DNA of 61,710 bases from an uncultured Planctomycetia bacterium (lineage in GTDB: Bacteria; Omnitrophota; Gorgyraeia; 2-02-FULL-51-18), in assembly GCA_964402785.1 (NCBI GenBank), contig CAYODQ010000005.1, positions 1-61,710 on the forward strand, written 5' to 3'. Position 1 is the stretch's first letter. Every line of letters begins with the position of its first letter. The notes under the pieces are model-generated. The model saw nothing but the letters and a program-made list of their open reading frames with translations, ran no database searches and was not told where the DNA came from. The translations under genes and the position numbers were made by a program. Positions 3,305 through 47,055 of the stretch are shown piece by piece.

Positions 3305-4465
3305 TTACTTGCCCATGCCCACACGCTGAGCCTGCTGGAAGATCTTTCCTTCGGTTTTGATCGAAGGTGCGATGATGATCTCGGTAAGCTGAAGCTCGCG
3401 CACACTCTTGGCTCCGACATTGCCCATGCAAGTTTGCAAAGCGCCCATTAGATTTTGTGAACCATCGTCCAGCTTCGCCGGGCCATACAAGATCTCTTCG
3501 AGTGTGCCCGTGGTGCCCACATGAATGCGCGTCCCACGAGGAAGATTGGCATGCGGTGTCGCCATGCCCCAGTGATAACCACCACCCGGAGCTTCTTTGG
3601 TGCGCGCAAAAGCTGAACCCACCATCACCGCATCGGATCCGCAGGCAAACGCCTTACAAATGTCACCGCCGGTGGACATACCGCCATCCGCGATGATGGG
3701 AATATATTTTCCTGTATTCTTATAATAAAAATCACGTGCTGCGGCCGCATCACAGATGGCAGTGACCTGCGGAACTCCCAGACCCAACACGCCGCGCGTC
3801 GTGCAAGCGGCTCCGGGGCCTATACCGATCAAAACACCGGCGATCCCGGTTTCCATCAGCTCAAGCGTCGTGTCATAATTCACACAATTTCCCAGGATCA
3901 CAGGGATCTTCAAGGTCTTGCACAGTTTATGAAAATCCACCGTTTTGTATTCGGTAGAAATATGTCGCACCGTCGTGACGGTCGATTGAACCACAAAAAT
4001 ATCACAACCAGCATCCTGAGCGATCTTGCCGAACTTTTCTGCTTTTTGAGGGATACTCGACACACAAGCAACACCGCCCTTGGCTTTGATCTCACGCACG
4101 CGCTTGGCGATCAATTTTTCTTGCACGGGCTTGGTATAGATCGACTGAATGAGGCGCGTGGCTTCATCGGGTGTCGCATTGGCCATCTTCTTCAAAACAT
4201 CGTTGGGATTTTCGTAGCGGGTTTGAACACCTTCGAGGTTGAGAACAGCGATGCCGCCGAGCTTGGACATGGCGACTGCGAAATTGACATCCACCACGCC
4301 ATCCATCGCGGATGCGATGATAGGCACGCGGAATTTTCGTTTACCAACCTGCCATGAAGTGTCTACTTCATTGGGGTTGATGGTGACAGAGCCTGGCACC
4401 AATGCGATCTCATCAAATCCATAACAACGGCGCGCTTTGCGGCCCCGACCTATCCACTCACCCAT
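3305..4465 (-). CDS. guaB3: GuaB3-family IMP dehydrogenase (no CBS pair)
   Basis: GFDEIALVPG, GIGPGAACTTRGVLGLGVPQ, IIADGG, WGMATPH; start moved to MGEWIG at 4465. Confidence 0.9.
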   Translation of the reverse strand: MGEWIGRGRKARRCYGFDEIALVPGSVTINPNEVDTSWQVGKRKFRVPIIASAMDGVVDVNFAVAMSKLGGIAVLNLEGVQTRYENPNDVLKKMANATPDEATRLIQSIYTKPVQEKLIAKRVREIKAKGGVACVSSIPQKAEKFGKIAQDAGCDIFVVQSTVTTVRHISTEYKTVDFHKLCKTLKIPVILGNCVNYDTTLELMETGIAGVLIGIGPGAACTTRGVLGLGVPQVTAICDAAAARDFYYKNTGKYIPIIADGGMSTGGDICKAFACGSDAVMVGSAFARTKEAPGGGYHWGMATPHANLPRGTRIHVGTTGTLEEILYGPAKLDDGSQNLMGALQTCMGNVGAKSVRELQLTEIIIAPSIKTEGKIFQQAQRVGMGK

Positions 4466-4496
4466 ATCCAACTCCTTTTCTCTGTCCAAAGTTAAT

Positions 4497-4991
4497 TTAA
4501 AATTTTGTTTTTTGCTCAGGCGAAACATCCGTCAGCACATTGCTTGTGGCGCCCGTCGTAGCGTCCATCACACCACCCGCCACTTCATGTGCGGGCGCGA
4601 TGGGCTCCGTCACACCTTTCACTACGTCCCCAGCACCTTCCAGAACTTCTTGAACAGCGGTTCCGAGCGGCTTTTCCACTTCAGGAAGCGCTTCACCCGT
4701 CTTTGTGATCTTAAGGATCTTGATATCACCTTTGGTGTCTGTGAATTCAAAATCTACCAGGTCGTTGGTGTGGATATTTTTAAGCATATCCCCGGACGCT
4801 GCAAAGAATTCGGTGTTGGCTTCGCCTGAAAATCCTGCGATCGCTCCATGATGGATGGTCACCTGAGAATACACAGGGTCCACCGTGATGACCTGTCCTT
4901 TTGCGCTGTAATTTTTGGGCTGGGCTTCGGCTGCAAAAAGAACGGGTGAAAACATCGTTATGAGGAAGGTAAAAATAAATAACTTTTTCAT
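4497..4991 (-). CDS. Exported CusF-like (OB-fold) protein with C-terminal extension
   Basis: Signal peptide; KGQVITVD..VTIHHGAI...TEF resembles CusF/Cu-binding domain, but the Met ligands are absent. Confidence 0.55.
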   Translation of the reverse strand: MKKLFIFTFLITMFSPVLFAAEAQPKNYSAKGQVITVDPVYSQVTIHHGAIAGFSGEANTEFFAASGDMLKNIHTNDLVDFEFTDTKGDIKILKITKTGEALPEVEKPLGTAVQEVLEGAGDVVKGVTEPIAPAHEVAGGVMDATTGATSNVLTDVSPEQKTKF

Positions 4992-5090
4992 GATCTCTCC
5001 AAGGCTTTGAAAGTGTTAGTTAGAGCTTAAACTTAATGATAGGCACAGTATATTAGCAAATGAGCAGGACTAAGGACAAGTCATTTGCAG

Positions 5091-5723
5091 TCAGGTGCTT
5101 GAGGAAATATCCCAGCTCAGCCGAACGCCGCTGTCTTTGAGCCATTTTTTATACACAGCGTGACCCGGCATAGTTTTTTCGACTAGGCTCCAAAATCTCT
5201 CTGAATGGTTCAGCTCTTTCAAATGCGCCAGCTCGTGCACGACCACATAATCAATAATTTCCATCGGAGCCATCACAAGCCTCCAACAAAAACGAAGCGT
5301 TCCATGCGGTGTACAGCATCCCCAGCGGCTTTTGGCGCTCGATAAAGACAGTGAACGATAACGGACGCCCATGACGGGCGCAAACAGTTGGCAGCGCTGG
5401 GTGAAAATACGAAACGCTTCTTCTTTGTACCATTTCTCAAATAGCTTGCGCGCCCTTGTTTGGTGTTTAGCCGCTAAAATAAATCGATCTTCAAACAAAA
5501 ACTTACCAAACATATCCCCCGCGATATGCAAATCGTATTCACGCCCAAGAAACAAAAACTGCTCGCCTTCAATGAATCGATGCGGCTTAAACTCTTCCGC
5601 ACGTAGCCGCATTTTTTGGGTCGCACGCTCGATCCAATCGGATTTTTTTTGAATGAAGTTTTTAATTTGACTGTCTTTTAAAAAATACGGCGCCCGCACA
5701 ACCAGCACCCCATCCGGCTGCAC
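5091..5723 (-). CDS. YgjP/DUF45-like M48 family metallo-hydrolase
   Basis: RWGCC, DYVVVHELAHLKELNHSERFW motif; the true start is probably upstream of 5723. Confidence 0.9.
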   Translation of the reverse strand: MQPDGVLVVRAPYFLKDSQIKNFIQKKSDWIERATQKMRLRAEEFKPHRFIEGEQFLFLGREYDLHIAGDMFGKFLFEDRFILAAKHQTRARKLFEKWYKEEAFRIFTQRCQLFAPVMGVRYRSLSLSSAKSRWGCCTPHGTLRFCWRLVMAPMEIIDYVVVHELAHLKELNHSERFWSLVEKTMPGHAVYKKWLKDSGVRLSWDISSST

Positions 5724-7795: not shown

Positions 7796-9241
7796 TTAGT
7801 TTTCTTGTGGGGCTGCCGAGTAGATGATCTTTTGGCCATCTGGCGAGAAATCATAGCCTATCTCGAGAATTGAAGACTTCTTAAATTCCTCTATGTCAGC
7901 GGTTTCCATGGATAGTTTGTATAAGTTAAAGCCAAAGCCAGATTTTATGTCATTGGCGGGTCGCGCTTTGATCAGGATCTTATCCTCATCCACAGGATCC
8001 GCCATGAGCCCTGCTATGTTCCCCAGCCCATAAGGCACCAAGCTTATCTGATTGACCTTTTGGCCCTCGATATCGATAAAAACAATATCCGTAAAGGATT
8101 GATACATGATCACGGGCTCATTTTTGAGCCAAGCAGCAAACTGAGGCGTTTTAAAGAAATCGTTTTCATGGGTCAGCTGTATTGGATCTCCCCCCGAGGA
8201 GGGCATCACAAAGATCTGCTTTTCGTCACCCTTGACGCTTTGGATATACAGCAACCACCGACCATCGCCGGATATTGAAAGATCCTGCTTTGCATTCCCA
8301 TCCGTTGTCAGCGGCCGGCTCGAATTAGTAGAAAATTCATATACGTGAACATCGCTTTTTCCTTTATCGGTGGTGAGATAAAAGATCGCGCTATCGTCAA
8401 GCGACCACATCGGCGAGACATTGAAACGGCCGTCCTTGACCAATGTTTTTCGATCAACGCCATCAGATGAAAAAAGATCGAGCGACGCCGAATGATCATC
8501 CCCTTTGGTGACGCTGGAAAAAGCGATACGGCTGCCATCATGCGAAAAACGCGGAAAAGCATTTCTACCGTCTCGGGTCAGGCGGATTATCTCCGTGCTT
8601 CGCAGATCCTCCACGCAGATATCCATGCGGCTTGCTTTTTTCATATAGAAAAATGAAATACCAAAAACAAATACGACAAATAAAACAATAAAAGCCGTAA
8701 CAATGCCCAAGGCGATCAGCCAGCCTTTACGACGTGATTTTTTAGTATGAGCGGCTGCCGAAAAATAGGCTTTAACCTCGGGTTTTCTTAAAAAAATAAG
8801 AAGATAGACCGATAAAGCCATATCAAAGCCGTACACGATAAGCATGGGAAGGTCTTTCGCGACAGCGCTAAGGCCCAGCGGGATAAAAATGAGGTTCGAA
8901 ACAAAACAAACCAAAAGCCATATTCTGGCCCAATTCTTCCTACGCAGAAATTCATAAACTAAATAAAGCCCCCAGATCATGGAGATCAGCATGGTGTAGC
9001 GCAGGCTATGAAAAACATTGCCGGGTAAAAAGCAAAGCAAACAAGTCAGCATGGATGCGATCATCAATCCAGCTGCCCATCGAAGGCGTGTGAGAAGAGT
9101 TGGGCTTGTTCTTAGTTCTTGTTGTGACTCGGACACCGAAGAGGTGCTGACGGGCGGGGCGTTGACAGGCGCTTCGCATACCGGACACTCAACCACATCG
9201 GGTGTTTCGGGGATATATGAATTACATTTTTTACAATACAT
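7796..9241 (-). CDS. Zn-ribbon + multi-TM + TolB-like (PD40) beta-propeller protein
   Basis: N-terminal CKKC..CPVC, ~5 TM helices, repeats such as PRFSHDGSRIAF, PMWSLDD, SISGDGRWLLY, DFSPDGQKIIY. Confidence 0.8.
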   Translation of the reverse strand: MYCKKCNSYIPETPDVVECPVCEAPVNAPPVSTSSVSESQQELRTSPTLLTRLRWAAGLMIASMLTCLLCFLPGNVFHSLRYTMLISMIWGLYLVYEFLRRKNWARIWLLVCFVSNLIFIPLGLSAVAKDLPMLIVYGFDMALSVYLLIFLRKPEVKAYFSAAAHTKKSRRKGWLIALGIVTAFIVLFVVFVFGISFFYMKKASRMDICVEDLRSTEIIRLTRDGRNAFPRFSHDGSRIAFSSVTKGDDHSASLDLFSSDGVDRKTLVKDGRFNVSPMWSLDDSAIFYLTTDKGKSDVHVYEFSTNSSRPLTTDGNAKQDLSISGDGRWLLYIQSVKGDEKQIFVMPSSGGDPIQLTHENDFFKTPQFAAWLKNEPVIMYQSFTDIVFIDIEGQKVNQISLVPYGLGNIAGLMADPVDEDKILIKARPANDIKSGFGFNLYKLSMETADIEEFKKSSILEIGYDFSPDGQKIIYSAAPQEN

Positions 9242-21933: not shown

Positions 21934-23951
21934 TTTTTCTTGTATTTGAGTTTGGGTGTCGACTTGGCCGGCTTAGCTGAAGGCTCTTTTTCAAGCTTAC
22001 CCTGAAGCTTGCGCAGCTGATCCCTGAGTTGGATCGCGCGCTCAAACTGCAAAAGCCGCGCTGCCTCCTCCATCTCATGCTCGATCTCGCTGATAGCTTC
22101 AAGCGTATCTTGCTTTTTATCGTCTACCCCAGAAACTTCAAGAACGAGATCGCGCGCTTTCTTGATAGACTCGATGCCCTCGCGCACTTCTTTCTGGATA
22201 GACTGCGGCGTGATGCCGTGTTTGGTGTTGTATTCGATCTGCAGCTTGCGGCGACGAGCGGACTCCAGCATCATGCGCCGCATGGAGTCTGTCACCGTAT
22301 CTGCATAAAAAATCACATGACCATCTTGATGGCGAGCTGCGCGACCCGCCACCTGGATAAGCGATGTCTCGCTGCGCAAAAAACCCTCTTTATCGGCATC
22401 CAACACCGCCACGAGAGAAACTTCAGGAAGATCGATACCTTCGCGCAAAAGATTGATCCCGACAAGGCAATCAAAAGCGCCCAATCGCAAATCACGGAGG
22501 ATCTCAACTCTTTCGATGGCATCGATGTCCGAGTGTAAATATTTCACCTTCACACCCGCATCTTTTAGATAAGCCGCCAGATCTTCGGACATTTTTTTGG
22601 TGAGGGTTGTCACGAGGACTCGCTGTTTACGAGCCACGCGCGCCTCGATCTTGCCGATCAAATCATCGATCTGATTTTTGGTGGGCAGTACTTCAACCTG
22701 TGGATCCAGCAGTCCTGTCGGGCGGATCACCTGCTCCACGATCAGCGAAGACTTCTCGATCTCGTATTTGGAAGGTGTGGCAGACACGAACAAGGTTTGC
22801 CCTGTCACTTTTTCAAATTCGTCAAACTGAAGCGGCCTATTATCCAACGCGCAAGGCAGCCGGAAACCATAATTCACCAATGTCTCTTTACGTGCCCGAT
22901 CTCCAAAATACATACCCCTTATTTGCGGGATAGAGATGTGGGACTCATCCACCATAAGCAGATAATCTTTGGGGAAATAATCCAGCAAACACTCAGGCCT
23001 TGAGCCGGGTGTGCGCCCAGTGAGAATACGCGAATAATTCTCGATCCCGGAACAAAATCCAAGCTCTTTCATCATCTCCATGTCGTATCGCGTACGCTGC
23101 TCCAAGCGCTGAGCCTCAACAAGCTTATTTTCCGAATTGAGCACTTTGAGTCTTTCGTTCAGCTCCTGCTCAATTTGAGACAAGGCGCCCTCAAGCTTTG
23201 GCTGCGTTGTCACAAAATGTTTGGCGGGGTAAATTGCGATCGATTCGATCGGATGCAGGACGGCGCCTGTCAGCGGGTGAATACGGCTGATCTTTTTGAC
23301 CATATCCCACTCAAACTCTACGCGCAAAGCGGTTTCCTCATATGCCAAAAAAACCTCGACCACATCCCCGCGCGCGCGAAAATTTCCGCGTTTAAACTCC
23401 ACGTCGTTTCGATGGTATTGGATCTCGACTAGGCGCTTGAGCATGTCATCGCGCTGGAGGGTTTGTCCGACACGCAGGAACAAAAGCATATCCTCATAAT
23501 CTTTGGGCGAGCCCAAACCGTAGATCGCTGACACAGACGACACGACGATACAATCACGGCGCGACAAAAGTGAACTCGTGGCTCTCAGTCTCAGGCGGTC
23601 GATATCTTCATTGATGGCGGAGTCTTTCTCGATATACGTGTCGGTTTGCGGCACATACGCCTCGGGCTGATAAAAATCGTAGTAACTGACGAAGTATTCG
23701 ACAGCATTCTCAGGAAATAATTCTTTGAACTCACTATAAAGCTGAGCGGCCAAGGTTTTGTTGTGCGACATGACCAAAGTCGGGCGGTTTAGGGCGGCGA
23801 TGACCTGCGCCATTGTGAAAGTCTTGCCGCTACCCGTGACACCCAAAAGCGTTTGATAGCGCTCACCCGAACGGATATGGGCTATTAATTTTTGGATCGC
23901 CTGCGGTTGATCCCCTTTGGGAACCATGTCCGAGACAAGCTTGAACTCCAT
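21930..23951 (-). CDS. uvrB: Excinuclease ABC subunit B
   Basis: [39 protein letters not shown]-terminus. Confidence 0.99.
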
Positions 23952-24817
23952 CAGGAAACAATATCCAGCGAAACATCCAGCCAGGGAGCGCTGTGCGTCA
24001 AAGCGCCGATGGAGATGCGCTCAACCCCCGTCTCGGCGGCAGCGCGCACATTCTCGAGGTTGATACCACCAGATGCCTCATAAAGCGGCATCGAAGCTTT
24101 GCTGGTGCCATAAGCCTGCTCTCGCATATGCACCGCTTGCTTCATTTGCTCGATAGTCATATTGTCCAAGAGGATGTATTCGACTCGTGTCGTCAATGCT
24201 TCGGCCAACTCTTTTAAATTTTTTACTTCCAACCCGATCAGGACATTTTTGAGCACACCCTTACGAGCGCGCGTGATGATGGATGGGATGGATTCGTTTT
24301 TAAGGATACGAAGATGATTGTCTTTGATGAGCACCTGATCGTATAAACCCATGCGATGATTGACGCCGCCGCCGGTTGCGACCGCCATCTTCTCCAGCAC
24401 GCGCATATTGGGTGTGGTTTTGCGGGTGTCCAGGATCTTGGCTTTGGTGCCTTTGACTTTATCGACATATTGGCGTGTCAGCGTTGCGATCCCGGATAAT
24501 TTCCCCAAAAAATTAAGCGCCGCTCTCTCGCCCATGAGAATCGAATGCGCTGAGCCATCAATAAACGCCAGCTCACGTCCCGGCTCCAGGATCTCCCCAT
24601 CTTTAGCTGTCGGTAAAAATCGAAGATTGGCATCCAGGTGGCGAAAAACGCTTTCTACGATCTCCATCCCGCACAAAACCCCGGGAGCTTTTGCTTGGAT
24701 CAAAGCGCGGATCTTCCGGCCGGGAGGAATAATGGAGGTGGTGGTCAGATCTCCCCGCCCAATATCCTCTCTCAGGGCGAGTTTGACGATAAGATCGAGG
24801 ACGTCGGCGCGGAGCAT
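23951..24817 (-). CDS. nadC: Nicotinate-nucleotide pyrophosphorylase
   Basis: [35 protein letters not shown]. Confidence 0.98.
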
Positions 24818-24823
24818 GGCGAT

Positions 24824-27553
24824 TTATTCGAGCGTCTTCAGGTTTTCCAGCAAACGCTTCTTGCGGTCTTCAAGCTCCACGGCTTTTAATTTTTCTTTGT
24901 CGACGATATCTTTGGGTGCTTTGCTCAAAAATTCTTTATTGGCAAGCCTGCCCTCAAGGCCTTTGATCATACGCTCCACGTCCGAAAGAGCGCTCGTGAT
25001 GCGCTGTCTCTCAACAGCGATATCTACAAGGCCGCTTAAGATCACATACGTCTCAACGCGCCCGATATTGGCCACGGCCGATTCTTTGGGGCGCGCGATA
25101 TTTTTGCCGATCGTGAGAGACGAAAGTCTCGCCATCTGCGCGATCAGAGTGGAGTGAGCGTTGAGCATCTTAAGCTCTTTGTCGCCATTTACTTTGACCG
25201 CCACCTGCACTTGATCCTTGGGGTTGATCTGCCAAGCAGACCGCACATTGCGAATAGATTGGATCTCGCTGATCACAAGCTGTATCTCGCCCTCGATCTT
25301 AGGATCCAGCCATTTTTTCTGAGCCTTGGGCCACTCTGCCAACATCAAACTCTCACCCTCATGCGGCAATGTCTGCCATATCTCTTCCGTAATAAATGGC
25401 ATAAAAGGATGCAAAAGCCGCATCAAGGTCTCCAGCACACGATGCAGCACCCACTGAACCGGCTTCTCATCGATATGCGCTTTTACGATCTCAAGATACC
25501 AGTCGCAGAACTCATGCCAGAAAAATTCATAGATCACATTGGTGGCTTCTTGAAAACGGCTTTTATCGATGCACTCTGTGATCTTGGTGGTGGTGTTTTG
25601 AAGCCGGCTTAAGATCCAGCGATCCGCAGCAGACAGCTCCGTCTTGGAAGGCTCGGTTTTAAGAGAAATGCCTTTGGGTGGGCGATGCATGGCCACAAAG
25701 CGCGAGGCATTCCAGATCTTGTTGGCAAAATTACGCCCAAGTTCGAATTTTTCTTTGGAGCAATAAACATCCTGCCCCTCTGCTGTGATCGATATGATGG
25801 CGTAGCGAAGCGCATCAGCTCCATATTGATCGATGATATTGATAGGATCCACTGCGTTGCCGAGAGATTTGGACATCTTGGCACCCGTCTCGTCACGCAC
25901 AATGCCATGAATGTATACCTGCGAGAACGGCGTCTTGCCCATGAACTCGATACCGGACATGATCATGCGAGCCACCCAGAAAAAGATGATCTCGTAGCCG
26001 GTGACCAAGGTCGAAGTGGGATAAAAATATTTGAGATCAGCCGTTTCTTTGGGCCAACCCAATGTTGAAAATGGCCACAACCACGATGAAAACCAGGTAT
26101 CCAGTACATCTGGATCCTGTATCAAATCCACATTGTGGCAAGTGGGACATTTTTTGGGCGTATCCACGGATACGATCATGCCTGGCTCCATGTACACCTT
26201 GGAATTAGGCTGACGAAAAGCGGTCTCGGTGGAACGGCAATGCGCGCAATACCACACCGGGATACGATGACCCCACCAGATCTGGCGCGAAATACACCAG
26301 TCTTTGATATTTTCCATCCACTCGTAATACACCTTGGTCCAGCGCTGAGGCGTGAAGACGGTCTTGCCTTCTTTGACCACAGCAATTGCTTTTTCGGCCA
26401 GCGGTTTCATTTTGACGAACCACTGGGTTGAGAAATAAGGCTCCACAACCGTCTGGCAGCGATAGCAATGTCCCACCGAATGAACGTGTTCTTTGGTTTC
26501 CAAAAGAATGCGCCTATCTTCAAGCTCAGACACGATCTTGCGACGTGCTTCAAAACGATCCATGCCTTTGTATGGGCCGCCATGATCATTGACGGAAGCA
26601 TCGGGGTTAAAAATATTGATATTCTCAAGCTGATGTTTACGGGCCAGCTCAAAATCAACCGGATCATGCGCAGGCGTGATCTTAAGAGCGCCTGTGCCAA
26701 AGGCCGGATCGATGGCTTCGTCTTGGATGATACGAAGCTTGCGATTTAAAAGCGGAAGAATGACGGTTTTACCGACAAATTGTTGATAGCGCTCGTCCTT
26801 AGGATTAAATCCGACTGCCGTATCGCCCAGCATGGTTTCGGGACGAGTGGTTGCGATGGTGATGTGCTGATCTGTGCCCTCAACGGCGTATTTGATGTAA
26901 TACAAATGCCCTGTGATCTCTTTATGCTGCACCTCTTCGTCTGAAAGTGCCGTTTGACAACGCGGGCACCAGTTGACGATATAATGACCACGATAAACGA
27001 GACCCTTTTGATATAGCTGCACAAATACTTCACGCACTGCCTGAGAGAGCCCCTCGTCCATGGTAAAACGCGTACGGTCCCAGTCACACGAGGCTCCAAG
27101 CCGCTGTTGCTGCTTGATGATGGTGTTGCCGTATTTTTCGCGCCATTTCCAAACGCGCTCCAAAAATTTCTCACGACCCAAGGCTTGGCGGGTAAGACCT
27201 TCTTCTTTGAGTGATCGCTCCACAACATTTTGAGTGGCAATGCCCGCATGATCTGTGCCGGGAAGCCAAAGCGCCTCAAAACCATTCATACGCTTGTAAC
27301 GTGTCAAAATATCCTGGATAGTGCTGTTGAGCGCATGTCCCATATGAAGGATGCCCGTGATATTCGGCGGCGGGATCACGATCACATAAGGCTTTTTTTT
27401 GGATTTGGCCGAAGCTTTGAAGTAGCCTTTTTTCATCCAAATGTCGTACCATTTTTTTTCAACGAGCTTTGGATCATAAGCTTTGGACAGCTCGGTCAAT
27501 TTTTCCGGCTTTTTGGAGTCATCGGATGGTTTGGGCTTTGATTTACCACTCAT
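24824..27553 (-). CDS. valS: Valine--tRNA ligase
   Basis: PPPNITGILHMGH, DWCISRQIWWGH, KMSKS. Confidence 0.99.
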   Translation of the reverse strand: MSGKSKPKPSDDSKKPEKLTELSKAYDPKLVEKKWYDIWMKKGYFKASAKSKKKPYVIVIPPPNITGILHMGHALNSTIQDILTRYKRMNGFEALWLPGTDHAGIATQNVVERSLKEEGLTRQALGREKFLERVWKWREKYGNTIIKQQQRLGASCDWDRTRFTMDEGLSQAVREVFVQLYQKGLVYRGHYIVNWCPRCQTALSDEEVQHKEITGHLYYIKYAVEGTDQHITIATTRPETMLGDTAVGFNPKDERYQQFVGKTVILPLLNRKLRIIQDEAIDPAFGTGALKITPAHDPVDFELARKHQLENINIFNPDASVNDHGGPYKGMDRFEARRKIVSELEDRRILLETKEHVHSVGHCYRCQTVVEPYFSTQWFVKMKPLAEKAIAVVKEGKTVFTPQRWTKVYYEWMENIKDWCISRQIWWGHRIPVWYCAHCRSTETAFRQPNSKVYMEPGMIVSVDTPKKCPTCHNVDLIQDPDVLDTWFSSWLWPFSTLGWPKETADLKYFYPTSTLVTGYEIIFFWVARMIMSGIEFMGKTPFSQVYIHGIVRDETGAKMSKSLGNAVDPINIIDQYGADALRYAIISITAEGQDVYCSKEKFELGRNFANKIWNASRFVAMHRPPKGISLKTEPSKTELSAADRWILSRLQNTTTKITECIDKSRFQEATNVIYEFFWHEFCDWYLEIVKAHIDEKPVQWVLHRVLETLMRLLHPFMPFITEEIWQTLPHEGESLMLAEWPKAQKKWLDPKIEGEIQLVISEIQSIRNVRSAWQINPKDQVQVAVKVNGDKELKMLNAHSTLIAQMARLSSLTIGKNIARPKESAVANIGRVETYVILSGLVDIAVERQRITSALSDVERMIKGLEGRLANKEFLSKAPKDIVDKEKLKAVELEDRKKRLLENLKTLE

Positions 27554-29130
27554 TTGCGGCGATCCTTTAAAAGTTTATAGATATAGGCATCCACGATAGC
27601 CTTCCAGCTTGCCTCGACGATATTGGTAGAGACGCCGATCGTGGACCAGATATTATTTTTGTCACGAAACTCGATGATAACGCGCACTTTGGCGGCTGTT
27701 CCTGCCTTCGAATTGACGATACGAACTTTATAGTCTTCAAGCGCCACTTCTTTGACCTGGGGATAAAACTCAGCCAAGGCCTTCACAAACGCTTTGCCAA
27801 GTGCATCCACCGGCCCATCGCCCTTCGTGGACACGACAGGCCCCTTTTTACCATCCACGGATACGCAAACAGAAGCCTTCACATCCACCTCTTCCCCCAC
27901 CTGTTCATTGGAGACAGCTGCGGACTCGATCTTAAAAAATGGCTTAGTTTTTCCGGCGCTCATGATGCGGCGCACAAGAAGCTCATAACTGGCCTCGGCG
28001 CTTTCGAATTGATAACCTTCATTCTCCAAGCGCTGCACTTCTTGTAAGATCTTCTTCGTTTCGGGTGTGTCTTTTTTAAGATCAATGCCCAGCTCTTCTG
28101 CTTTGAGCAAGATGTTGGTGCGGCCTCCGACCTCGGATACTAAATGCCGACGGCTATTGCCGACAAGCGTGGGATCGATGTGTTCGTAAGTGATGGGATT
28201 TTTTTTCACAGCGTCGATATGGACGCCGCCTTTGTGCGCAAAAGCGCTTTGTCCAACATACGGCTGCCCCTTGGACGGCACGCGGTTAGCCACCTCATCC
28301 ACGAAACGCGAAAGTTCAGTGAGCTCGGCAAGTTTTTCGGAAGACAAACATTTATAATCGTACTTCAGCTGCAAATTAACAACCACGGGGATAAGATCAC
28401 AATTGCCACAACGCTCGCCGATCCCGTTGATCGTGCCTTGGACATGACGCACACCGGCTTCGACAGCCGCTATCGCATTGGCCACACCCATTGCACCGTC
28501 ATTGTGCGTGTGGATACCCAAGGGCGCCTTGAGCTTGGCGCTGACTTCTTTGACGATCTCGGTCACACGCGTGGGCATCGTGCCGCCGTTTGTATCGCAT
28601 AGAACGATCACGGAAGCGCCAACACGATAGGCCGTCTCGATGGCTTTGAGCGCGTATTTGGCATTGTGTTTATAGCCGTCAAAAAAATGCTCGGCATCAT
28701 ACACCACTTCTTTGCCTTTGGAGATCAGGAACTTGACCGAGTCTTCGATCATGCGTAGGTTTTCATCCAGATCCGTCTTAAAAACTTCGGTGACATGAAG
28801 ATCCCAGCTTTTGCCAAAGATCGTCACAACCGGTGTGTCGGCCGCAACCAGAGCCTTGAGATTGGCATCCTCAGATGCTTTGGTGTGAGCTTTGCACGTG
28901 GAGCCAAACGCTGCAAGCTTCGCGTGTTTGAGCCTCACCTTCTTGGCTTCATCAAAAAACTCGCTGTCTTTAGGATTGGCACCCGGCCAGCCGCCTTCGA
29001 TATAGTCAAAACCCATCTCATCCAGCTTCTTCAGGATGAGAAGCTTGTCTTGGACAGAAAACGAGATACCCTCTCCCTGAGAGCCGTCGCGTAAAGTCGT
29101 ATCGTATACTTGGATCTTTTTGGAGCTCAA
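27550..29130 (-). CDS. cimA: Citramalate synthase
   Basis: YDTTLRDGSQGEG, IEGGWPGANPKD, YDAEHFFDG, FAHKGGVH. Confidence 0.93.
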   Translation of the reverse strand: MSSKKIQVYDTTLRDGSQGEGISFSVQDKLLILKKLDEMGFDYIEGGWPGANPKDSEFFDEAKKVRLKHAKLAAFGSTCKAHTKASEDANLKALVAADTPVVTIFGKSWDLHVTEVFKTDLDENLRMIEDSVKFLISKGKEVVYDAEHFFDGYKHNAKYALKAIETAYRVGASVIVLCDTNGGTMPTRVTEIVKEVSAKLKAPLGIHTHNDGAMGVANAIAAVEAGVRHVQGTINGIGERCGNCDLIPVVVNLQLKYDYKCLSSEKLAELTELSRFVDEVANRVPSKGQPYVGQSAFAHKGGVHIDAVKKNPITYEHIDPTLVGNSRRHLVSEVGGRTNILLKAEELGIDLKKDTPETKKILQEVQRLENEGYQFESAEASYELLVRRIMSAGKTKPFFKIESAAVSNEQVGEEVDVKASVCVSVDGKKGPVVSTKGDGPVDALGKAFVKALAEFYPQVKEVALEDYKVRIVNSKAGTAAKVRVIIEFRDKNNIWSTIGVSTNIVEASWKAIVDAYIYKLLKDRRK

Positions 29131-29140
29131 AAGTGTCCCT

Positions 29141-30361
29141 TTATTTTTTCTTGCTCAAATTGAATGCCTGATGCAGAACCAACACGGCTTTATCCGCCTG
29201 ATCTCGGTTCACCACACATGAGATCTTGATCTCGCTCGTAGAGATCATCTCAATATTGATCTTGTTTTTGGCCATGATCTCAAACATCGCAGCGGCCACA
29301 CCTGCGTGACTGCGCATACCCACTCCCACCACGGATATCTTGGACAAATTGAGGTCTTTGGATATTTTTTTAATGCCTGTCTTGCGCGCGATCTTCTGAA
29401 GCGACTCGACGGCTCGATTGGCATCTGCCTTGGGTACGGTAAATGAGATATCGGTGTCCACATCATCACCAATGTTCTGGATGATCATATCCACATTGAT
29501 CGCCTGATCGGACAGGCTCCGGAAGATAGTCGCCGCGACGCCGGGCTTGTTGGGCACGCCGCTCACGGTAACTTTTGCCTCATCTTTGCTACAAGAAACA
29601 CCACGAATCAATACATCTTCCATCGACTTATCCTCCTTCACGATCCAGGTTCCTTCATTTTGTGAAAAACTTGACCGCACATGCAGCGGTATATCAAATT
29701 TACCAGCGACTTCAATAGAGCGCGACTGCATCACTTGAGCACCCGATGAAGCAAGCTCCAACATTTCTTCATAGCTGATACGCTTGATCTTGCTTGCGTT
29801 TTTTACTTTGCGCGGATCAGCGGTGTAGATTCCCTCCACATCCGTATAGATCTCGCAAGTATCCGCCTTCAGGGCCTTGGCCAAAGCTACAGCCGTCAAG
29901 TCACTCCCGCCGCGGCCAAGCGTTGTGATCTCTTGGTTCGCATCGATCCCCTGAAACCCCGCAACAATGACCACCTTTTTTTGCTCCAGCTCTTTTTTGA
30001 TACGAGATGTATTGATATCCACGATACGCGCTTTGGTGTAACTGGAATCAGTGCGAATACCGACCTGCGCCCCCGTAAACGAGATCGCATCAACTTTGAG
30101 CTCATGCAAAGCCATCGCCAAAAGCGCTACGGATATTTGCTCACCCGTGGATAAAAGCATATCCAACTCACGGCGAGAAGGATTTTTGGATATTTTATCC
30201 GCCAATTCCAAAAGATCATCCGTCGTATCACCAAGAGCGCTCACCACCACGACCAGCGAGTGGCCTTTTTTGGCATACTGCGCGACGCGACGCGCTACAT
30301 TCTGAATACGCTCAGGCGAAGCAACGCTTGAACCACCAAATTTTTGCACAAATAGCGGCAT
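29141..30361 (-). CDS. lysC: Aspartate kinase
   Basis: VQKFGGSS, TTLGRGGSD, two ACT domains. Confidence 0.98.
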   Translation of the reverse strand: MPLFVQKFGGSSVASPERIQNVARRVAQYAKKGHSLVVVVSALGDTTDDLLELADKISKNPSRRELDMLLSTGEQISVALLAMALHELKVDAISFTGAQVGIRTDSSYTKARIVDINTSRIKKELEQKKVVIVAGFQGIDANQEITTLGRGGSDLTAVALAKALKADTCEIYTDVEGIYTADPRKVKNASKIKRISYEEMLELASSGAQVMQSRSIEVAGKFDIPLHVRSSFSQNEGTWIVKEDKSMEDVLIRGVSCSKDEAKVTVSGVPNKPGVAATIFRSLSDQAINVDMIIQNIGDDVDTDISFTVPKADANRAVESLQKIARKTGIKKISKDLNLSKISVVGVGMRSHAGVAAAMFEIMAKNKINIEMISTSEIKISCVVNRDQADKAVLVLHQAFNLSKKK

Positions 30362-30373
30362 ACAAAGATCCTC

Positions 30374-31513
30374 TTAATTTAAAAATGTTTTCATGAGCCC
30401 GTGCCCAGGCTCAAACGTGACGCCTGATGCAAAAGCATGTTTCTCGTCAAAGTTGTCGGAGGCATTGGCTTCAAACCCGGGACCCGCCAAAAGAACCGGG
30501 ACATGCCCGTGCCCTGAATTTTTTTTATGCAATCCCTCCGAAGTATCGGATGTGATGAGAATACGAACGCCGTCTTTGTTGGCCTGATATTCTCGCAAAG
30601 CAGCTCCCACCACGATCTCGTCAAATACCTCAATACGGCGGATCTTAGACTTGAGCGTCACGCCTTTTTTTTCATCTGACTCATGATCGCGATAGACAAT
30701 GCGCACATCTGCCTTGGCTGAGATAGGATCCGCTGCCGTCTCCACAGAAAGCGCCTTGGCTAAGCCCTTCATAAAAAGTGTTTTGGCGACGATGGCTGCA
30801 GATTTTCCGTAACGATCCTTGAAGGGCGGCAGCTTGGGCTTTCGACCCTGACCCCAAAACCAGACCATATTGGCGGGGTTCTCTCCCAGATCAATACGAA
30901 CACGGTTGACATCATGGTTTTCCAGAGCCACGCGAGAGGATTGCATCCATTCCATCATTTTATTTTGAAGTTTTCCCTTGGGCCAATGCTTGGCTATTTT
31001 TTGCGACACCATTTTAGACGGCTGCACACACTCAAGGCCATCATACTCCGCCACATCTTTATCGGCAGAAATAATGGCGAGATTACGATAACCATCCACA
31101 GCGTGAAATAAGAACGTGCCATCCGAATGACGCTTCAACTCTTCCAGCAAAATAAGCGCTTCTCTTGCCGAAATATGACCCGCTGACGGATCGATCAGTG
31201 TGTCCTCAGAGACGGTCACAAAATCTGACCGAAAAGCGACCTGGGTTTCGGATTGTTGGATATTAAGAGCCATGGCTTCAAGCGGCGCCAAACCTGTAAA
31301 AGTTTCTACGGGATCGAATCCGAGCAAAGAAAACATCGCAACCTCTGGTGTCGCACTCAGCGAACTAGGCACAAAACTGCTTTTGCCGATGCGAGCCGAT
31401 TTCGCAAGCGCATCCATTGCGGGAGTCTTGGCAACTTCAAGCGGAGTCCTACCTTGAAGCTCTTCCAGCGGCTCATCCGCCATCCCCCTACAAACCAACA
31501 CAAAATATTTCAT
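30374..31513 (-). CDS. ApgM/TIGR02535-type phosphoglycerate mutase homolog with degenerate active site
   Basis: GMADEP..TPLEVAKTP, SAGHIS, NPANMVWFWGQG conserved; catalytic Ser and metal ligands substituted. Confidence 0.85.
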   Translation of the reverse strand: MKYFVLVCRGMADEPLEELQGRTPLEVAKTPAMDALAKSARIGKSSFVPSSLSATPEVAMFSLLGFDPVETFTGLAPLEAMALNIQQSETQVAFRSDFVTVSEDTLIDPSAGHISAREALILLEELKRHSDGTFLFHAVDGYRNLAIISADKDVAEYDGLECVQPSKMVSQKIAKHWPKGKLQNKMMEWMQSSRVALENHDVNRVRIDLGENPANMVWFWGQGRKPKLPPFKDRYGKSAAIVAKTLFMKGLAKALSVETAADPISAKADVRIVYRDHESDEKKGVTLKSKIRRIEVFDEIVVGAALREYQANKDGVRILITSDTSEGLHKKNSGHGHVPVLLAGPGFEANASDNFDEKHAFASGVTFEPGHGLMKTFLN

Positions 31514-31520
31514 ATTCCCC

Positions 31521-32585
31521 TTAAGACTTTATTGCTTTCAAAACAGCATCCAGTTTTGCAGGAGCTTTTTTGAGCTTTCCCACACTACGGATCGCTATAT
31601 CAGGATCTTTTAATCCGTGACCTGTAAGAACACAAACCAGCGAAGCCTTTTTGGCTTTTGCCTTCTTTTTAAAATATCCCTGTTTCGCAAGCTTGAGCAC
31701 GCCTGCAACGCTGGCAGCGCTTGCTGGCTCCACAAAAACACCATCTTTGCCCGCCAGCCATTTATAAGCACCCAGGATCTCCATATCTGTAACCGCATCA
31801 ATACGGCCACCGGAATCATTTTTGGCGGCAACAGCCGCTTGCCAGCTCGCCGGATTACCGATCCTTATCGCAGTTGCTATGGTTTTAGGGCTCTTTACAA
31901 TTTTATTTTGCACGATTGGGGAGGCGCCCTGCGCCTGAAATCCCAGCATCGTAGGGCATTTTTTAATTTTGCCGAGCTTGAAGTATTCCTGATAACCTTT
32001 CCAATAAGCGGTGATGTTTCCGGCGTTACCAACCGGTATCGAATGAAAATCAGGAACCCCTCCCAGCTGATCACAAACTTCAAAAGCGCCTGTCTTTTGA
32101 CCTTCTATACGATAAGGATTGAGCGAATTCACGAGCGCTATCCCCTCGCTCTTCGAAACTTCTTTGACCATCTGAAGCGCAATATCAAAATTTCCTTTGA
32201 TCGCAATAACTTTTGCTTGATGGATCAGCGCTTGGCTCAATTTCCCCAGCGCAATATGGCCATCCGGGATCAAAACCGCACAGCCTAGCCCCGCGCGAGC
32301 CGCGTATGCCGCCGCTGAGGCAGAAGTGTTGCCCGTGGACGCACAGATCACCATCTTCGCGCCCTCTTCTTTGGCTTTGGAAACGGCCATCGTCATGCCG
32401 CGATCTTTAAAAGAACCCGTGGGATTGAGGCCCTCGTATTTCAAAAAAACCTCAAGCCCCGTGGCTTTTGAAAGCGACTCTGAAAAAATAAGAGGTGTGT
32501 TACCCTCCCACAACGAAACAACCGGCGTCTTGGCCGAAACAGGCAAATAATCCTTGTAAGCTTCTACGATCCCTTGCCAGCTCAT
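31521..32585 (-). CDS. thrC: Threonine synthase
   Basis: EGNTPL, EGLNPTGSFKDRG, CASTGNTS, PVGNAGN. Confidence 0.98.
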   Translation of the reverse strand: MSWQGIVEAYKDYLPVSAKTPVVSLWEGNTPLIFSESLSKATGLEVFLKYEGLNPTGSFKDRGMTMAVSKAKEEGAKMVICASTGNTSASAAAYAARAGLGCAVLIPDGHIALGKLSQALIHQAKVIAIKGNFDIALQMVKEVSKSEGIALVNSLNPYRIEGQKTGAFEVCDQLGGVPDFHSIPVGNAGNITAYWKGYQEYFKLGKIKKCPTMLGFQAQGASPIVQNKIVKSPKTIATAIRIGNPASWQAAVAAKNDSGGRIDAVTDMEILGAYKWLAGKDGVFVEPASAASVAGVLKLAKQGYFKKKAKAKKASLVCVLTGHGLKDPDIAIRSVGKLKKAPAKLDAVLKAIKS

Positions 32586-33877
32586 GCTTCCACCCGAATA
32601 ACTTGTGTTTTTTCGCGCACGTCTTTACGGTTATCGATCAATCGAACAGCGCGGCGGATATTTTCTTCAAAAGCTCCATACGTGAGGATCACAACCGGCA
32701 CCGATTTTGATTCCTGCGACTCTTTTTGATGCACACTCAAAATGGAGATATGGTGACGCCCCAAGATCTTGGCGATATTGCCAAGTACACCTGGGCGATC
32801 TGCGACTTGAAAGCGCAAATAATATTTAGATACCAATCGATCCATCGGAAGCACGCGCCCACGATGACGCGCTGCCAGACTGGGCACGGAACGAAATTGA
32901 CCCACGGATAATTCTTTGGCCAGCTCAAGCATATCACTCAACACAGCGCTCGCCGTCGGCATGCGCCCTGCCCCTCGACCATAAAACAAAAGATCTCCCG
33001 CCTGATCCGCGTGCAAGAAAACCGCATTATATACCCCGCGGACACCCGCCAAGGGATGATCCAAGGGCAGCAGTGTGGGATGCACGCGGAGCTCAAGCCC
33101 TCCCGGCAAATTCTTTCCGATCGCCAAAAGCTTGATCGCATACCCCAGCTCACGCGCATAAGCGATATCTTCAGCGGTGATATTGCGTATACCCTGGACA
33201 AATATTTTTTTGTACGGTATTTGCATACGAAATGCCAAGCGCGCCAAAACAGCCAGCTTGTGCGCAGAATCAAAACCATCGATGTCCAAACTTGGGTTAG
33301 CTTCGGCAATGCCTTGTTTCTTGGCTTCGTCCAGCGCCGCGGCAAATGTTTTACCCGTTTGCGACATAGATGTCAGGATCGTGTTGCAAGTGCCGTTCAC
33401 AATTCCGTAAAAATGCGTGATCTGATTGGAAGCAAAACCTTCTTGGATCGAGCGAAGGATAGGAATGCCGCCGCACACACTAGCCTCAATGCCGATAGGG
33501 ATCTGTTTTTTTTCGGCAAGGCTATAGACCCGCTCACCTTTTTCAGCCAACAGCGCTTTATTGGCCGTCACAACAGGCTTGCCCAATGCCAAAGCTCGGC
33601 GAATCCATGTCGCGGCGGGCTCAACACCACCCACCAACTCCGCCACAATATCAACCCTGGGATCTTCGATCACATCCATCGGACGTGTCGTGAGTAGTTT
33701 CTTGGGGACAAAGACATCGCGCTTTTTGTTCAGCGAACGCACCGCAACGCGCCTAAGCTCCAAACGCAAACCGGTCTTTTCTTCGATGCGCCGCGCCTGA
33801 GTCTGGAGAATATGCGCCACACCCTGACCCACGGTTCCGAGCCCGATAATTCCTACACCGATTGTTTTTTTATTCAT
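32582..33877 (-). CDS. hom: Homoserine dehydrogenase with ACT domain
   Basis: GLGTVG, VVTANK, EASVCGGIP, NGTCN, DIDGFD; true start MNKKTI (the ORF-track start lies inside the tRNA). Confidence 0.97.
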   Translation of the reverse strand: MNKKTIGVGIIGLGTVGQGVAHILQTQARRIEEKTGLRLELRRVAVRSLNKKRDVFVPKKLLTTRPMDVIEDPRVDIVAELVGGVEPAATWIRRALALGKPVVTANKALLAEKGERVYSLAEKKQIPIGIEASVCGGIPILRSIQEGFASNQITHFYGIVNGTCNTILTSMSQTGKTFAAALDEAKKQGIAEANPSLDIDGFDSAHKLAVLARLAFRMQIPYKKIFVQGIRNITAEDIAYARELGYAIKLLAIGKNLPGGLELRVHPTLLPLDHPLAGVRGVYNAVFLHADQAGDLLFYGRGAGRMPTASAVLSDMLELAKELSVGQFRSVPSLAARHRGRVLPMDRLVSKYYLRFQVADRPGVLGNIAKILGRHHISILSVHQKESQESKSVPVVILTYGAFEENIRRAVRLIDNRKDVREKTQVIRVEA

Positions 33878-33901
33878 AATGGTTCCGACATTTAAAAAAC
33901 G

Positions 33902-33977
33902 TCGGGGCGGGCGGATTTGAACCGCCGACCTCCTGCACCCCAAGCAGGCGCTCTAGACCGAGCTGAGCCACGCCCCG
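33902..33977 (-). tRNA. tRNA-Pro(GGG); CCA not encoded
   Basis: CGGGGCG acceptor stem, CCTGC-TTGGGGT-GCAGG anticodon arm, GGTTCAAATCC T-arm. Confidence 0.95.
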
Positions 33978-33983
33978 TTAAAC

Positions 33984-34991
33984 CTAATCGCTTTCTCGGC
34001 TTGAACCTCCGGACAAAAGCGCCTCCACCACAATATTTGGATCTGATTTCAAAAACAAAATTTTATACACCGCTTCCGAGATCGGCATGGATACGCGGTA
34101 TTTTTTGGCCAGTTTGTACACGGACTTAGCCGTCTCGACGCCCTCGACCACCATTTCGGACTCACCCAAGATCTCGGATAATTTTTTACCCTTGCCGAGC
34201 TCATGCCCCAAAGTCCGATTGCGGCTATGCGCCGACAAACAAGTGGTGGCAAGATCTCCCAAGCCGCTTAGCCCTGTGAATGTTTCGCGCTTAGCACCCA
34301 TCTTATGACCCAGTCTCGCCATCTCGGCAACACCCCGTGCAAAAAATAATGCTCGTGTATTGGCGCCCATTCCAAGCCCTTCAGCAATACCAGCGCCGAT
34401 CGCAATCACGTTCTTGAAAGATCCGCCAAGCTCGACACCCAAGACATCGTCTGAACAAAAAAGCTGAAAGCGCTTGGTTGCAAAAAGCTGGCTGATGATT
34501 TTTGCGAATCCCGCATCTCGAGAGGCAACCGACGCTGCGGACGGCATCTTAAGGCCAACTTCTCGAGCGATGTTTGGGCCAGATAAAACGGCGAATCTTG
34601 TCTTACCCAAAGTCTCTTGCAAAACCTGCGACATTGTATGAAGCGAAGATGTTTCGATGCCTTTGGCTACGATGATAAATGATTGCGTCTTGGCGATTTT
34701 TTTGGGCAGCTGCGCCAAAACACTACGCATGTGTTGTGAGGGTATGGCCAAAACCAAAATATCCGAAAATTGCACCGCATCTTCCAGGGAATGTGTGAGA
34801 GAAATATTTTCAGGGATCTTGAACCCTGGCATGAACTTAATATTCTCTCTTTTTTTGCGGATCTCTTCGATATATTTGGGAAAAGCGCCCCACAAACTAA
34901 CCGAAAAACCCTTTTCAGCCAAAAGGATGGCCAGCGTCGTCCCCCAACCTCCATCACCCAAAACACTTATTTTTGTATCTTTTTGCGACAT
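33984..34991 (-). CDS. gpsA: NAD(P)H-dependent glycerol-3-phosphate dehydrogenase
   Basis: GDGGWGT, AKGIE, LSGPN, GGSFKNVIA, GLGDL, SRNR. Confidence 0.98.
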   Translation of the reverse strand: MSQKDTKISVLGDGGWGTTLAILLAEKGFSVSLWGAFPKYIEEIRKKRENIKFMPGFKIPENISLTHSLEDAVQFSDILVLAIPSQHMRSVLAQLPKKIAKTQSFIIVAKGIETSSLHTMSQVLQETLGKTRFAVLSGPNIAREVGLKMPSAASVASRDAGFAKIISQLFATKRFQLFCSDDVLGVELGGSFKNVIAIGAGIAEGLGMGANTRALFFARGVAEMARLGHKMGAKRETFTGLSGLGDLATTCLSAHSRNRTLGHELGKGKKLSEILGESEMVVEGVETAKSVYKLAKKYRVSMPISEAVYKILFLKSDPNIVVEALLSGGSSRESD

Positions 34992-45045: not shown

Positions 45046-45845
45046 TAGCGGACCTTTGCAACTGCGTTGGCAATGGGACGGATAAAATCGTTGCAGAATT
45101 TTTGGGCGGAAACGGATTTATTCTCATGAAGGGCCCTGACCACAGCACTGCCCACAATAATACCATCACCCAACTTAGCCATAGCACTTGCTTGTTCGGG
45201 ATTAGAGATACCAAAACCAATGCAAAGCGGGAGTTTGGTTTTTTGTTTAACTCTCCGCACTTGCGCTCCGATCTCCCCAGGGAGCTTGGTCTGTGCGCCT
45301 GTGACGCCGGTGACAGAAACATAATAAATAAAACCCTTGGACTTGCTAGAAATAAGCCGGATACGCTTATCAGAGCTCGTAGGCGCCAAAAGATAAACAA
45401 GATCCAGGCCGCCCGCGTTCATTTGTTTGGCAAACTCTTTCTCTTCATCCGGCGGGAGCTCCGGCACGATCAAACCGTCCACGCCGCATTTTTTGGCATC
45501 TACCATGAATTTTTTAAATCCATACCGCCAAATCGGGTTGAGGTATGTCATAAAAACGATCGGGATCTGAGTTTTTTGGCGGACACGCGCCACCAGATCC
45601 AATACTTTTTTAAGGTTGGTCCCGCGCTCAAGTGACCTCATTGATGACGCTTGGATCACTGGGCCATCCGCCACAGGATCTGAAAACGGAATGCCCAGCT
45701 CGATCAGGTCCACTCCGGCCTTTTCCATCTCAGGGATCAAAGCTTCGTTGAGAGAAAGACTTGGGTCGCCGGCCGTCATAAAAACAATAAAAGCTTTTTT
45801 CTTTGATTTTTTAAGCTGTTTAAATTTTGATTCGATGCGGCCCAT
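45045..45845 (-). CDS. trpA: Tryptophan synthase alpha chain
   Basis: TAGDP, ELGIPFSDPVADGPVIQ, GFGIS. Confidence 0.99.
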   Translation of the reverse strand: MGRIESKFKQLKKSKKKAFIVFMTAGDPSLSLNEALIPEMEKAGVDLIELGIPFSDPVADGPVIQASSMRSLERGTNLKKVLDLVARVRQKTQIPIVFMTYLNPIWRYGFKKFMVDAKKCGVDGLIVPELPPDEEKEFAKQMNAGGLDLVYLLAPTSSDKRIRLISSKSKGFIYYVSVTGVTGAQTKLPGEIGAQVRRVKQKTKLPLCIGFGISNPEQASAMAKLGDGIIVGSAVVRALHENKSVSAQKFCNDFIRPIANAVAKVR

Positions 45846-45846
45846 A

Positions 45847-47055
45847 TTAAAATTTCAATACCTTTGATACTTGCTGCACATCTTTATCCCCGCGGCCCGA
45901 CAAACAAATGATCATTGTGTCTGATTTCTTAAATCGTTTTTTATCGCGGATCAAATACCCTATCGCATGCGCCGGCTCAAGTGCCGGGATAATCCCCTCG
46001 GTTTGACTGAGTGTCTTCATACCCAGAAGCGCATCTTTATCCGTCGCCCATTCGTACTGAGCCCGACCCGCCATCTTTAGAAAGGCGTGCTCAGGCCCCA
46101 CACCGGGATAATCCAAGCCGGCTGATATTGAGTGCGCCAAAAGGATCTGGCCATTATCATCTTGAAGTATTTCGCTTTTAGAACCATGCAATATACCCAT
46201 ACGGCCTTTGGTGAGCGTCGCGGCGTGTTGAGTGGTGTGTATGCCAAGCCCTGCCGCTTCAACGCCGATCATTTTGGAACGACGAGTCAAATACGGATGA
46301 AAAAAACCAATGGAATTGGAGCCTCCGCCCACACAGGCCACCAAATAATCAGGATCAGATAACCCCAACTTTTTCGTGGAAGCTTGAGTTTCCTTGCCGA
46401 TCACGGATTGAAAATCGCGCACCATCATCGGATACGGGTGCGGCCCTATCACGGAGCCGATAATGTAATGCGTATCCCTCACATTGGTCACCCAGTCTCG
46501 AATAGCTTCATTGCAAGCATCCTTTAAAGTTTTGGAGCCTGATTTGACGGGAATAACACGAGTGCCCAGCATTTTCATACGAAATACATTCAATTCTTGG
46601 CGATGCACATCTTCTTCGCCCATGTAGACTTCACATTGGATACCAAAAAGCGCACATACAGTTGCCGTTGCGACACCATGCTGACCGGCGCCTGTCTCAG
46701 CGATCACGCGCTTTTTACCCATACGCTTTGTCAAAAGCACCTGGCCCAATGTGTTGTTGATCTTATGAGAGCCCGTGTGAAGCAAATCTTCGCGCTTCAA
46801 AAATACCCTTTTTACCCCCAGCAACTTCGCGAGGTTTTTCACCTCGGTAAGCGCAGTGGGTCGCCCGGCATAATGGTGCAGATAATATGAGAGCTCCTTT
46901 TTGAATCGCGGGTCTTTTTTGGCATCTCGATAACAGGCCTGCAGCTCATCCAAAGCAGCCATCAGCGTTTCTGGCATGAATTTTCCGCCGTAAGGCCCGA
47001 AGTGGCCTCCGGCATCCGGCCATTTGGCCCAGTATTTTTTATCGTGTTTTGACAT
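45847..47055 (-). CDS. trpB: Tryptophan synthase beta chain
   Basis: [33 protein letters not shown]. Confidence 0.99.

Follow-up and report, generated by a model that had tools for sequence, protein, structure and literature searches.

A conserved, probably inactive descendant of the homoserine phosphotransferase HomK in the threonine operon of Omnitrophota

Background

HomK (also ThrB2, family TIGR02535) is a homoserine phosphotransferase that has only recently been confirmed as an alternative homoserine kinase, its described representatives being BT2402 of Bacteroides thetaiotaomicron and DET_RS08350 of Dehalococcoides mccartyi (bioRxiv 10.1101/2024.10.14.618325, Appendix 3 and 5). The functional residues of BT2402/HomK are the catalytic Ser56, Asp9, the Asp and His of a DEAGH motif, an Asp-His pair and a further His, and its specificity residue, Glu299, is a Lys in true mutases (Price and colleagues, bioRxiv 10.1101/2024.10.14.618325, Appendix 3). 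ThrH of Pseudomonas aeruginosa is a phosphoserine:homoserine phosphotransferase (Singh et al. 2004, J Biol Chem 279:13166, cited in PMC5764234). In Pseudomonas it works as an accessory to ThrB and not as the sole homoserine kinase. Desulfovibrio has yet another type of homoserine kinase, which resembles shikimate kinase (PMC5764234).

In our searches of the literature we came across no account of a dead HomK, nor any of the homoserine kinase step in Omnitrophota. Dead relatives of enzymes are known from other pathways: HisG is regulated by HisZ, a dead paralog of HisRS, and trypanosomatids keep a pseudoenzyme, the AdoMetDC "prozyme", beside the pathway of its active relative. Here we describe a HomK-like gene, X, from a window (the whole stretch of DNA that was analysed) of 61,710 nucleotides belonging to a member of Omnitrophota, together with its relatives across the phylum; all genomes compared are MAGs.

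Results

X encodes protein P0001 and lies in a run of minus-strand genes whose order in the window is gpsA, hom, thrC, X, lysC, cimA, valS and nadC. The genes of immediate interest are the following:

33984-34991, minus strand: gpsA, first in the conserved block (NF000942, 396.2 bits)
32582-33943, minus strand: hom, homoserine dehydrogenase with an ACT domain (NF004976, 512.7 bits)
31521-32585, minus strand: thrC, threonine synthase (TIGR00260, 315.9 bits), its stop codon 7 nt ahead of the start of X
30374-31513, minus strand: X, a predicted catalytically dead HomK (ApgM-like) pseudoenzyme of 379 aa (TIGR02535, 286.5 bits; AF2 pLDDT 96.1; TM 0.78 to 2zkt)
29141-30361, minus strand: lysC, aspartate kinase with two ACT domains (NF005155, 597.9 bits), its start 12 nt past the stop of X
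27550-29130, minus strand: cimA, citramalate synthase, in the conserved block (TIGR00977, 714.7 bits)

Positions 30374-31513 hold exactly one ORF, which starts with ATG and is preceded by a GGGGA ribosome-binding site of its own. Both the gene order and the matches of X to PF10143 and PF01676 agree with the original prediction of an ApgM-like gene in a hom-thrC-X-lysC operon, the strand being minus. The best-scoring family model is TIGR02535 ("proposed homoserine kinase"), with a score 160 bits under the cut-off of 446.3, and the score against TIGR00306 (282.9 bits) is also under its cut-off (320); the profile match of X is split in two stretches, with model positions 257-303 missing. The whole block from gpsA to nadC (window positions 23951-34991), followed by uvrB in relatives, is syntenic phylum-wide and joins threonine, lysine and citramalate-route isoleucine genes with a lipid gene and a tRNA synthetase.

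The active site was read from an alignment of X with 33 intact Omnitrophota HomK homologs and solved ApgM structures. For the two-metal site, seven ligands were considered: D9 and S56, one Asp and one His each from the DEAGH and PDH motifs, and the His of RTH. The sites at which X departs from HomK in this alignment are:

31487-31489, minus strand: codon 9, Arg replacing the metal ligand Asp9 of HomK
31343-31348, minus strand: codons 56-57, Pro-Glu replacing the catalytic Ser56-Asp57 of HomK
30719-30724, minus strand: approximate site of a 12-17-residue deletion that removes the GATGYYDTDY segment
30665-30688, minus strand: codons 276-283 (DHESDEKK), remnant of HVE-x-x-DEAGH, with specificity Glu299 and ligand His306 lost
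30542-30547, minus strand: codons 323-324 (Asp-Thr), all that is left of PDH
30503-30511, minus strand: codons 335-337 (His-Gly-His), clade-typical, near the lost ligand His355

Six of the seven ligands, the catalytic Ser among them, are absent from X, the sole survivor being the Asp of PDH (D323), and the specificity Glu is gone as well. Each of the substitutions listed earlier from the sequence of X, including PPHD to QPSK and loss of the GATGY segment, was recovered in the alignment, as was the preservation of the scaffold motifs SAGHIS and PANMVWFWGQG. The residues that stand in for the lost ones vary among the 106 members of the clade. Position 9 is E in 53 of 87 clade members, A in 11, Q in 8, G in 7, H in 5, R in 2 and D in none, while position 56 is most often P (25 of 87), followed by S (15), G (15) and A (11). 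The GATGYYDTDY segment is missing from 106 of 106 X-clade sequences. The His of the DEAGH region is lost in X whichever register is used, and the Glu299 site is D276 in X and A, P, G, E or S elsewhere in the clade, none of them dominant. PDH has become SDT, keeping the Asp (also in 81 of 87 clade members) and losing the His. RTH has become KNS, with two His standing two and four residues downstream; the resulting His-Gly-His is not invariant (H335 in 57 and H337 in 43 of 87 members), and in two thirds of the clade H335 may represent a shifted RTH His. Besides D9, S56 and E299, the sites H306, H346 and H355 are lost, and the presumed substrate contacts E299, H113 and H170/D171 are lost across the clade, with H113 retained in P0001 itself. 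Several HomK-conserved polar residues survive in X (R95, D108, E118, N203, R206, D208, E211, K290, E295, D298, D323 and E357), which leaves a small chance of some unforeseen chemistry. X is, in short, a homolog of an active enzyme without essential catalytic residues, i.e. a pseudoenzyme, and we infer that it is catalytically inactive and makes no O-phosphohomoserine.

Compared with HomK, X has the same fold, the same best model (TIGR02535), the slot beside hom and thrC and a descent from intact Omnitrophota HomK, whereas it lacks the catalytic Ser, six of seven ligands, Glu299 and the segment of 12-17 residues. Its closest solved structures are of archaeal-type ApgM (TIGR00306; 2zkt, 3idd, 3kd8), but unlike these mutases it lacks both a metal site and a Lys at the specificity position, and the phosphoglycerate mutase of its own genome is gpmA (gpmI was not found there).

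X is a widespread and apparently well-folded protein. A protein search returned about 95 clusters of the shortened X type, 367-391 aa long and 40-79% identical, all from Omnitrophota MAGs, and intact orthologs of constant ORF length number more than 100. Among 87 X sequences that are only about 45% identical, 19 positions do not vary at all, and conservation reaches 90% or more at about 48 others. An AlphaFold2 model built from the clade alignment has a pLDDT of 96.1 and a pTM of 0.92 and, in Foldseek, shows the two-domain ApgM fold (2zkt_B, TM 0.78, 22% identity). Against the closest ortholog (79% identity) dN/dS is 0.06-0.07, rough values since dS is saturated near 2, and other genome pairs give 0.07-0.14 where measurable. 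These data rule out a decaying pseudogene and uphold the earlier view of X as an intact ORF that has been kept; the orthologs share a degenerate site, and their dN/dS of 0.06-0.14, at saturated dS, lies below 1. In these other pairs dN is 1.3-2.3 times as high for X as for thrC, lysC or hom, so that X is the least constrained gene of the block yet clearly under purifying selection.

Across the GTDB family of the window (f1; 32 genomes surveyed, 20 loci fetched) X was precisely deleted in two genomes (G136, G139), leaving hom-thrC-lysC-cimA. X is dispensable in some backgrounds, since it was cleanly deleted in these two and has diverged strongly in a third (G145). The G145 copy (L025 / L079, contig 1, about 677167-678400) is the most diverged of all, with 31% identity and 105 bits against TIGR02535, and may be decaying outright, though G145 is without HomK2, the intact paralog described below.

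The order gpsA-hom-thrC-X-lysC-cimA-valS was found in all 20 f1 loci fetched and on two contigs from the protein collection, and the same slot is filled in other families of the class by a HomK of 399-415 aa that retains Glu299 and the full set of ligands. Maximum-likelihood analysis recovers the X clade as monophyletic (SH-aLRT 100) and places it among these intact operon copies (98). Since X both nests among intact operon copies and sits in their slot, it is best understood as a positional ortholog of HomK that degenerated in place. A second degenerate group (families f21, f25, f26 and f31) likewise occupies the operon slot, with lesions that differ from those of X: there is no deletion, the DEAGH His is fixed as Arg, and PDH loses its Asp rather than its His. 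The f1 and f21-type degenerate clades are separate in the best tree, which the differing lesions fit, although a single origin of the two is compatible with the AU test (p=0.41). Family f10 reveals how events unfolded: ThrH is absent from G038 and G118, whose operon HomK is intact; G098 combines an intact operon HomK with ThrH; and in G108 ThrH is accompanied by a degenerate operon copy most closely related to the intact ones of f10. The stages are HomK alone, then HomK with ThrH, then a dead HomK with ThrH. Independent decay of HomK in f10 is firm, and the operon HomK was probably displaced by ThrH (or HomK2) in three lineages, with the dead copy retained each time.

If X is dead, homoserine must be phosphorylated by something else, and two candidates are encoded elsewhere in the same genome (2.05 Mb, 91% complete):

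Contig 19, 8318-8917: thrH, putative phosphoserine:homoserine phosphotransferase of the HAD family, 199 aa
Contig 11, 45773-46990 (L005:7774-8991): HomK2, protein P0121, an intact ApgM-like paralog of 405 aa (TIGR02535, 510.5 bits)

That the operon is without thrB had been noted before, and we found neither a GHMP-type ThrB (TIGR00191) nor the Neisseria-type thrB_alt (TIGR00938) in the genome either; the sole TIGR00191 match there is IspE (62 bits). As candidate kinases the two fail family-wide, with only IspE-level matches to TIGR00191 (70 bits or less) in 32 of 32 f1 genomes and no TIGR00938 found in any of the 32. The same genome search, which had been suggested for thrB, thrH or an intact apgM, did find the latter two, ThrH on contig 19 and HomK2 on contig 11, to which the step predicted to be done elsewhere can be assigned.

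The contig-19 ThrH scores 299.1 bits against NF010109 (cut-off 133) and 281.8 bits against TIGR02137 (cut-off 223.4), aligns end to end with P. aeruginosa ThrH (1rku, E=3.7e-67) and has HAD motifs (DLEGV, SDT, GDSYND) identical to those of 1rku. It is unrelated to X. Its donor, phosphoserine, would come from the products of serA and serC. TIGR02137 matches above cut-off occur in 30 of 32 f1 genomes, and matches at some level in 31. The neighbours of thrH are uninformative on its role: on contig 19 (5226-9694) it shares 4 nt with the end of the gene for an AcrB-like RND transporter and is followed directly by the exonuclease III gene (xth) and then by a type III glutamine synthetase.

When 121 genomes from across Omnitrophota were sampled, 44 of the 49 that lack an intact HomK were found to have ThrH, as against only 4 of the 72 that possess one (Fisher p=1e-22, without phylogenetic correction). 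Five genomes have neither. These are G003, with no match to the HomK family and none to thrC; G096, in which an otherwise high-scoring HomK is interrupted by a contig end; and G053, G061 and G106, each with a full-length degenerate copy. Within the second degenerate group, all eight genomes with an intact copy of the HomK2 type are without ThrH and nearly all others have it, the pattern expected if both do the same job. ThrH is most likely the working homoserine phosphotransferase that replaces X in the genome studied here.

HomK2 of this genome keeps all ligands and Glu299, with Thr standing in for Ser56. Thr in place of the catalytic Ser (PGTDIG) was seen in all four f1 HomK2 copies examined, and Ser in those of f21, f26 and f31. 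In f1 the gene is always found in the context nrnA-HomK2-FAD oxidoreductase-hisJ(PHP), and HomK2 of f1 and of the families of the second degenerate group form one clade (98). Because gpmA covers phosphoglycerate mutase activity, HomK2 would be free to act on homoserine, and it probably also supplies O-phosphohomoserine in this genome. As the sole replacement HomK2 is ruled out by its absence from 17 of 32 f1 genomes, some of them 91-100% complete, which have X only, in an equally degenerate form.

Further homologs and ORFs were observed along the way. G035 encodes another divergent ApgM-like paralog outside the operon (L065, contig 22, about 3940-5148) with Asn at the specificity position (HINATDEEAHQH) and a very long branch. 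Some Omnitrophota also have, away from the operon, ApgM homologs of a third type (L050 5005-6288; L051 5023-6339; L063 3970-5187) with Lys at the specificity position (HLKGPDE, HIKKTDS), which marks these as true ApgM-type mutases. G088 and G094, both with an intact operon HomK, have extra ORFs of 213-301 aa between thrC and HomK, and G094 has another, of 528 aa, between HomK and lysC; these ORFs lie at L041 4405-5055 and at L042 2885-4412 and 6201-7787.

Discussion

The explanation that we favor, and consider likely though by no means certain, is that X is a dead HomK kept under selection in a role that is non-catalytic, while ThrH, and probably HomK2 as well, makes O-phosphohomoserine. The arrival of ThrH or HomK2 would have rendered the operon HomK catalytically redundant, after which its active site would have decayed; the protein itself would have been retained between thrC and lysC, folded and under purifying selection, with the O-phosphohomoserine step supplied by the contig-19 ThrH and probably also by the contig-11 HomK2. 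X would then act as a structural or regulatory partner in the aspartate-to-threonine pathway, its counterpart being ThrC, LysC, Hom or ThrH. Such a non-catalytic partnership in the threonine pathway is the most likely role, and one that we propose with modest confidence.

What has been kept and what has been lost is informative here. Active HomK has 88 positions with a conservation of 93% or more, and the two degenerate clades both retain 32 of them, including D13, T23, E79, D108, E118, N207, R210, W222, W224, K313, E318, D321 and E379, while those lost in both include S110, H113, H170, D171, Y272, E299 and H306. With the scaffold kept but neither the phosphotransfer centre nor the presumed substrate contacts left, a structural or regulatory role is favored over that of a homoserine sensor, an idea weakened by the loss of those contacts in both clades.

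One may also consider a more demanding version, in which the ThrH-dependent threonine route requires, as a non-catalytic partner, some protein of the HomK fold, whether dead or alive, that might activate ThrH, or pass substrate to ThrH or to ThrC. If true, this would explain why a dead copy is retained at each ThrH takeover, why X is present in all 17 f1 genomes that lack HomK2, and why it is deleted only alongside HomK2, which both G136 and G139 keep. The deletion pattern (two genomes versus 17, too few for significance) is a hint that a HomK-fold protein is wanted alongside ThrH; on balance we regard the requirement as unlikely, albeit worth keeping in mind.

Alternatively, X could have gained another catalytic activity, other than homoserine phosphotransfer, through retained cap-domain residues. 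R95, D108, E118, N203, R206, D208 and E211 are invariant or nearly so, and there are fixed changes specific to the clade (N97 to D, H150 to N, and R204). However, nearly all residues conserved in X are also conserved in active HomK, which makes them scaffold-like, no new cluster of Cys, His or Ser is seen, and the second degenerate clade, in which that subset is kept too, shares none of the few changes specific to X. We therefore think a new activity improbable.

It may also be argued that X is a slowly decaying, functionless relic that persists where it does because excisions that spare thrC-lysC expression are rare. X is indeed the fastest-evolving gene of the block (31-49% identity versus 57-80% for its neighbours), and the precise deletions in G136 and G139 and the strong divergence in G145 fit a gene on its way out. 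Against this stand an intact ORF of constant length in more than 100 species with 19 invariant residues, the low dN/dS (about 0.06-0.14, at saturated dS), the confident model (pLDDT 96), and the keeping of a dead copy in two or three separate lineages, and we find this reading slightly more improbable still. Least probable of all is that X still phosphorylates homoserine, or assists in doing so, by a new alkaline-phosphatase-fold chemistry without the phospho-Ser or the two-metal site: the gene does hold the exact kinase slot of the operon, 17 f1 genomes are without an intact HomK, and several conserved charged residues and the common His-Gly-His remain near the old site, but the former active-site positions vary across the clade and no set of replacements has become fixed, E299, H113 and H170/D171 as presumed substrate contacts are lost too, and the ThrH of 31 of 32 f1 genomes removes the need for such an activity.

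Taking X as a dead HomK with a non-catalytic role, the parallel with HisZ and the prozyme is evident, in that a catalytically dead descendant of an enzyme is conserved and encoded with its pathway. The difference is that here the active function would have moved to the non-homologous ThrH, and not only to a paralog. Likewise, ThrH in Omnitrophota would differ from its accessory counterpart in Pseudomonas in being the chief supplier of O-phosphohomoserine and, in many relatives, the sole one. New in this work are the probable replacement enzymes that we name for an operon with a dead HomK, ThrH and HomK2.

Conclusions

Annotation pipelines and tools of the GapMind type will call any TIGR02535-like gene in a threonine operon a homoserine kinase, and yet a large part of the phylum Omnitrophota appears to carry a dead HomK in that very slot. 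ThrH, so far a curiosity of Pseudomonas, would become the principal homoserine phosphotransferase of entire lineages. Moreover, Omnitrophota would offer a natural series, repeated in separate lineages, that runs from an enzyme, through the enzyme with a non-homologous replacement, to a conserved pseudoenzyme with that replacement, and that may be used to ask why dead enzymes persist, the obvious partners being ThrC, LysC, Hom and ThrH.
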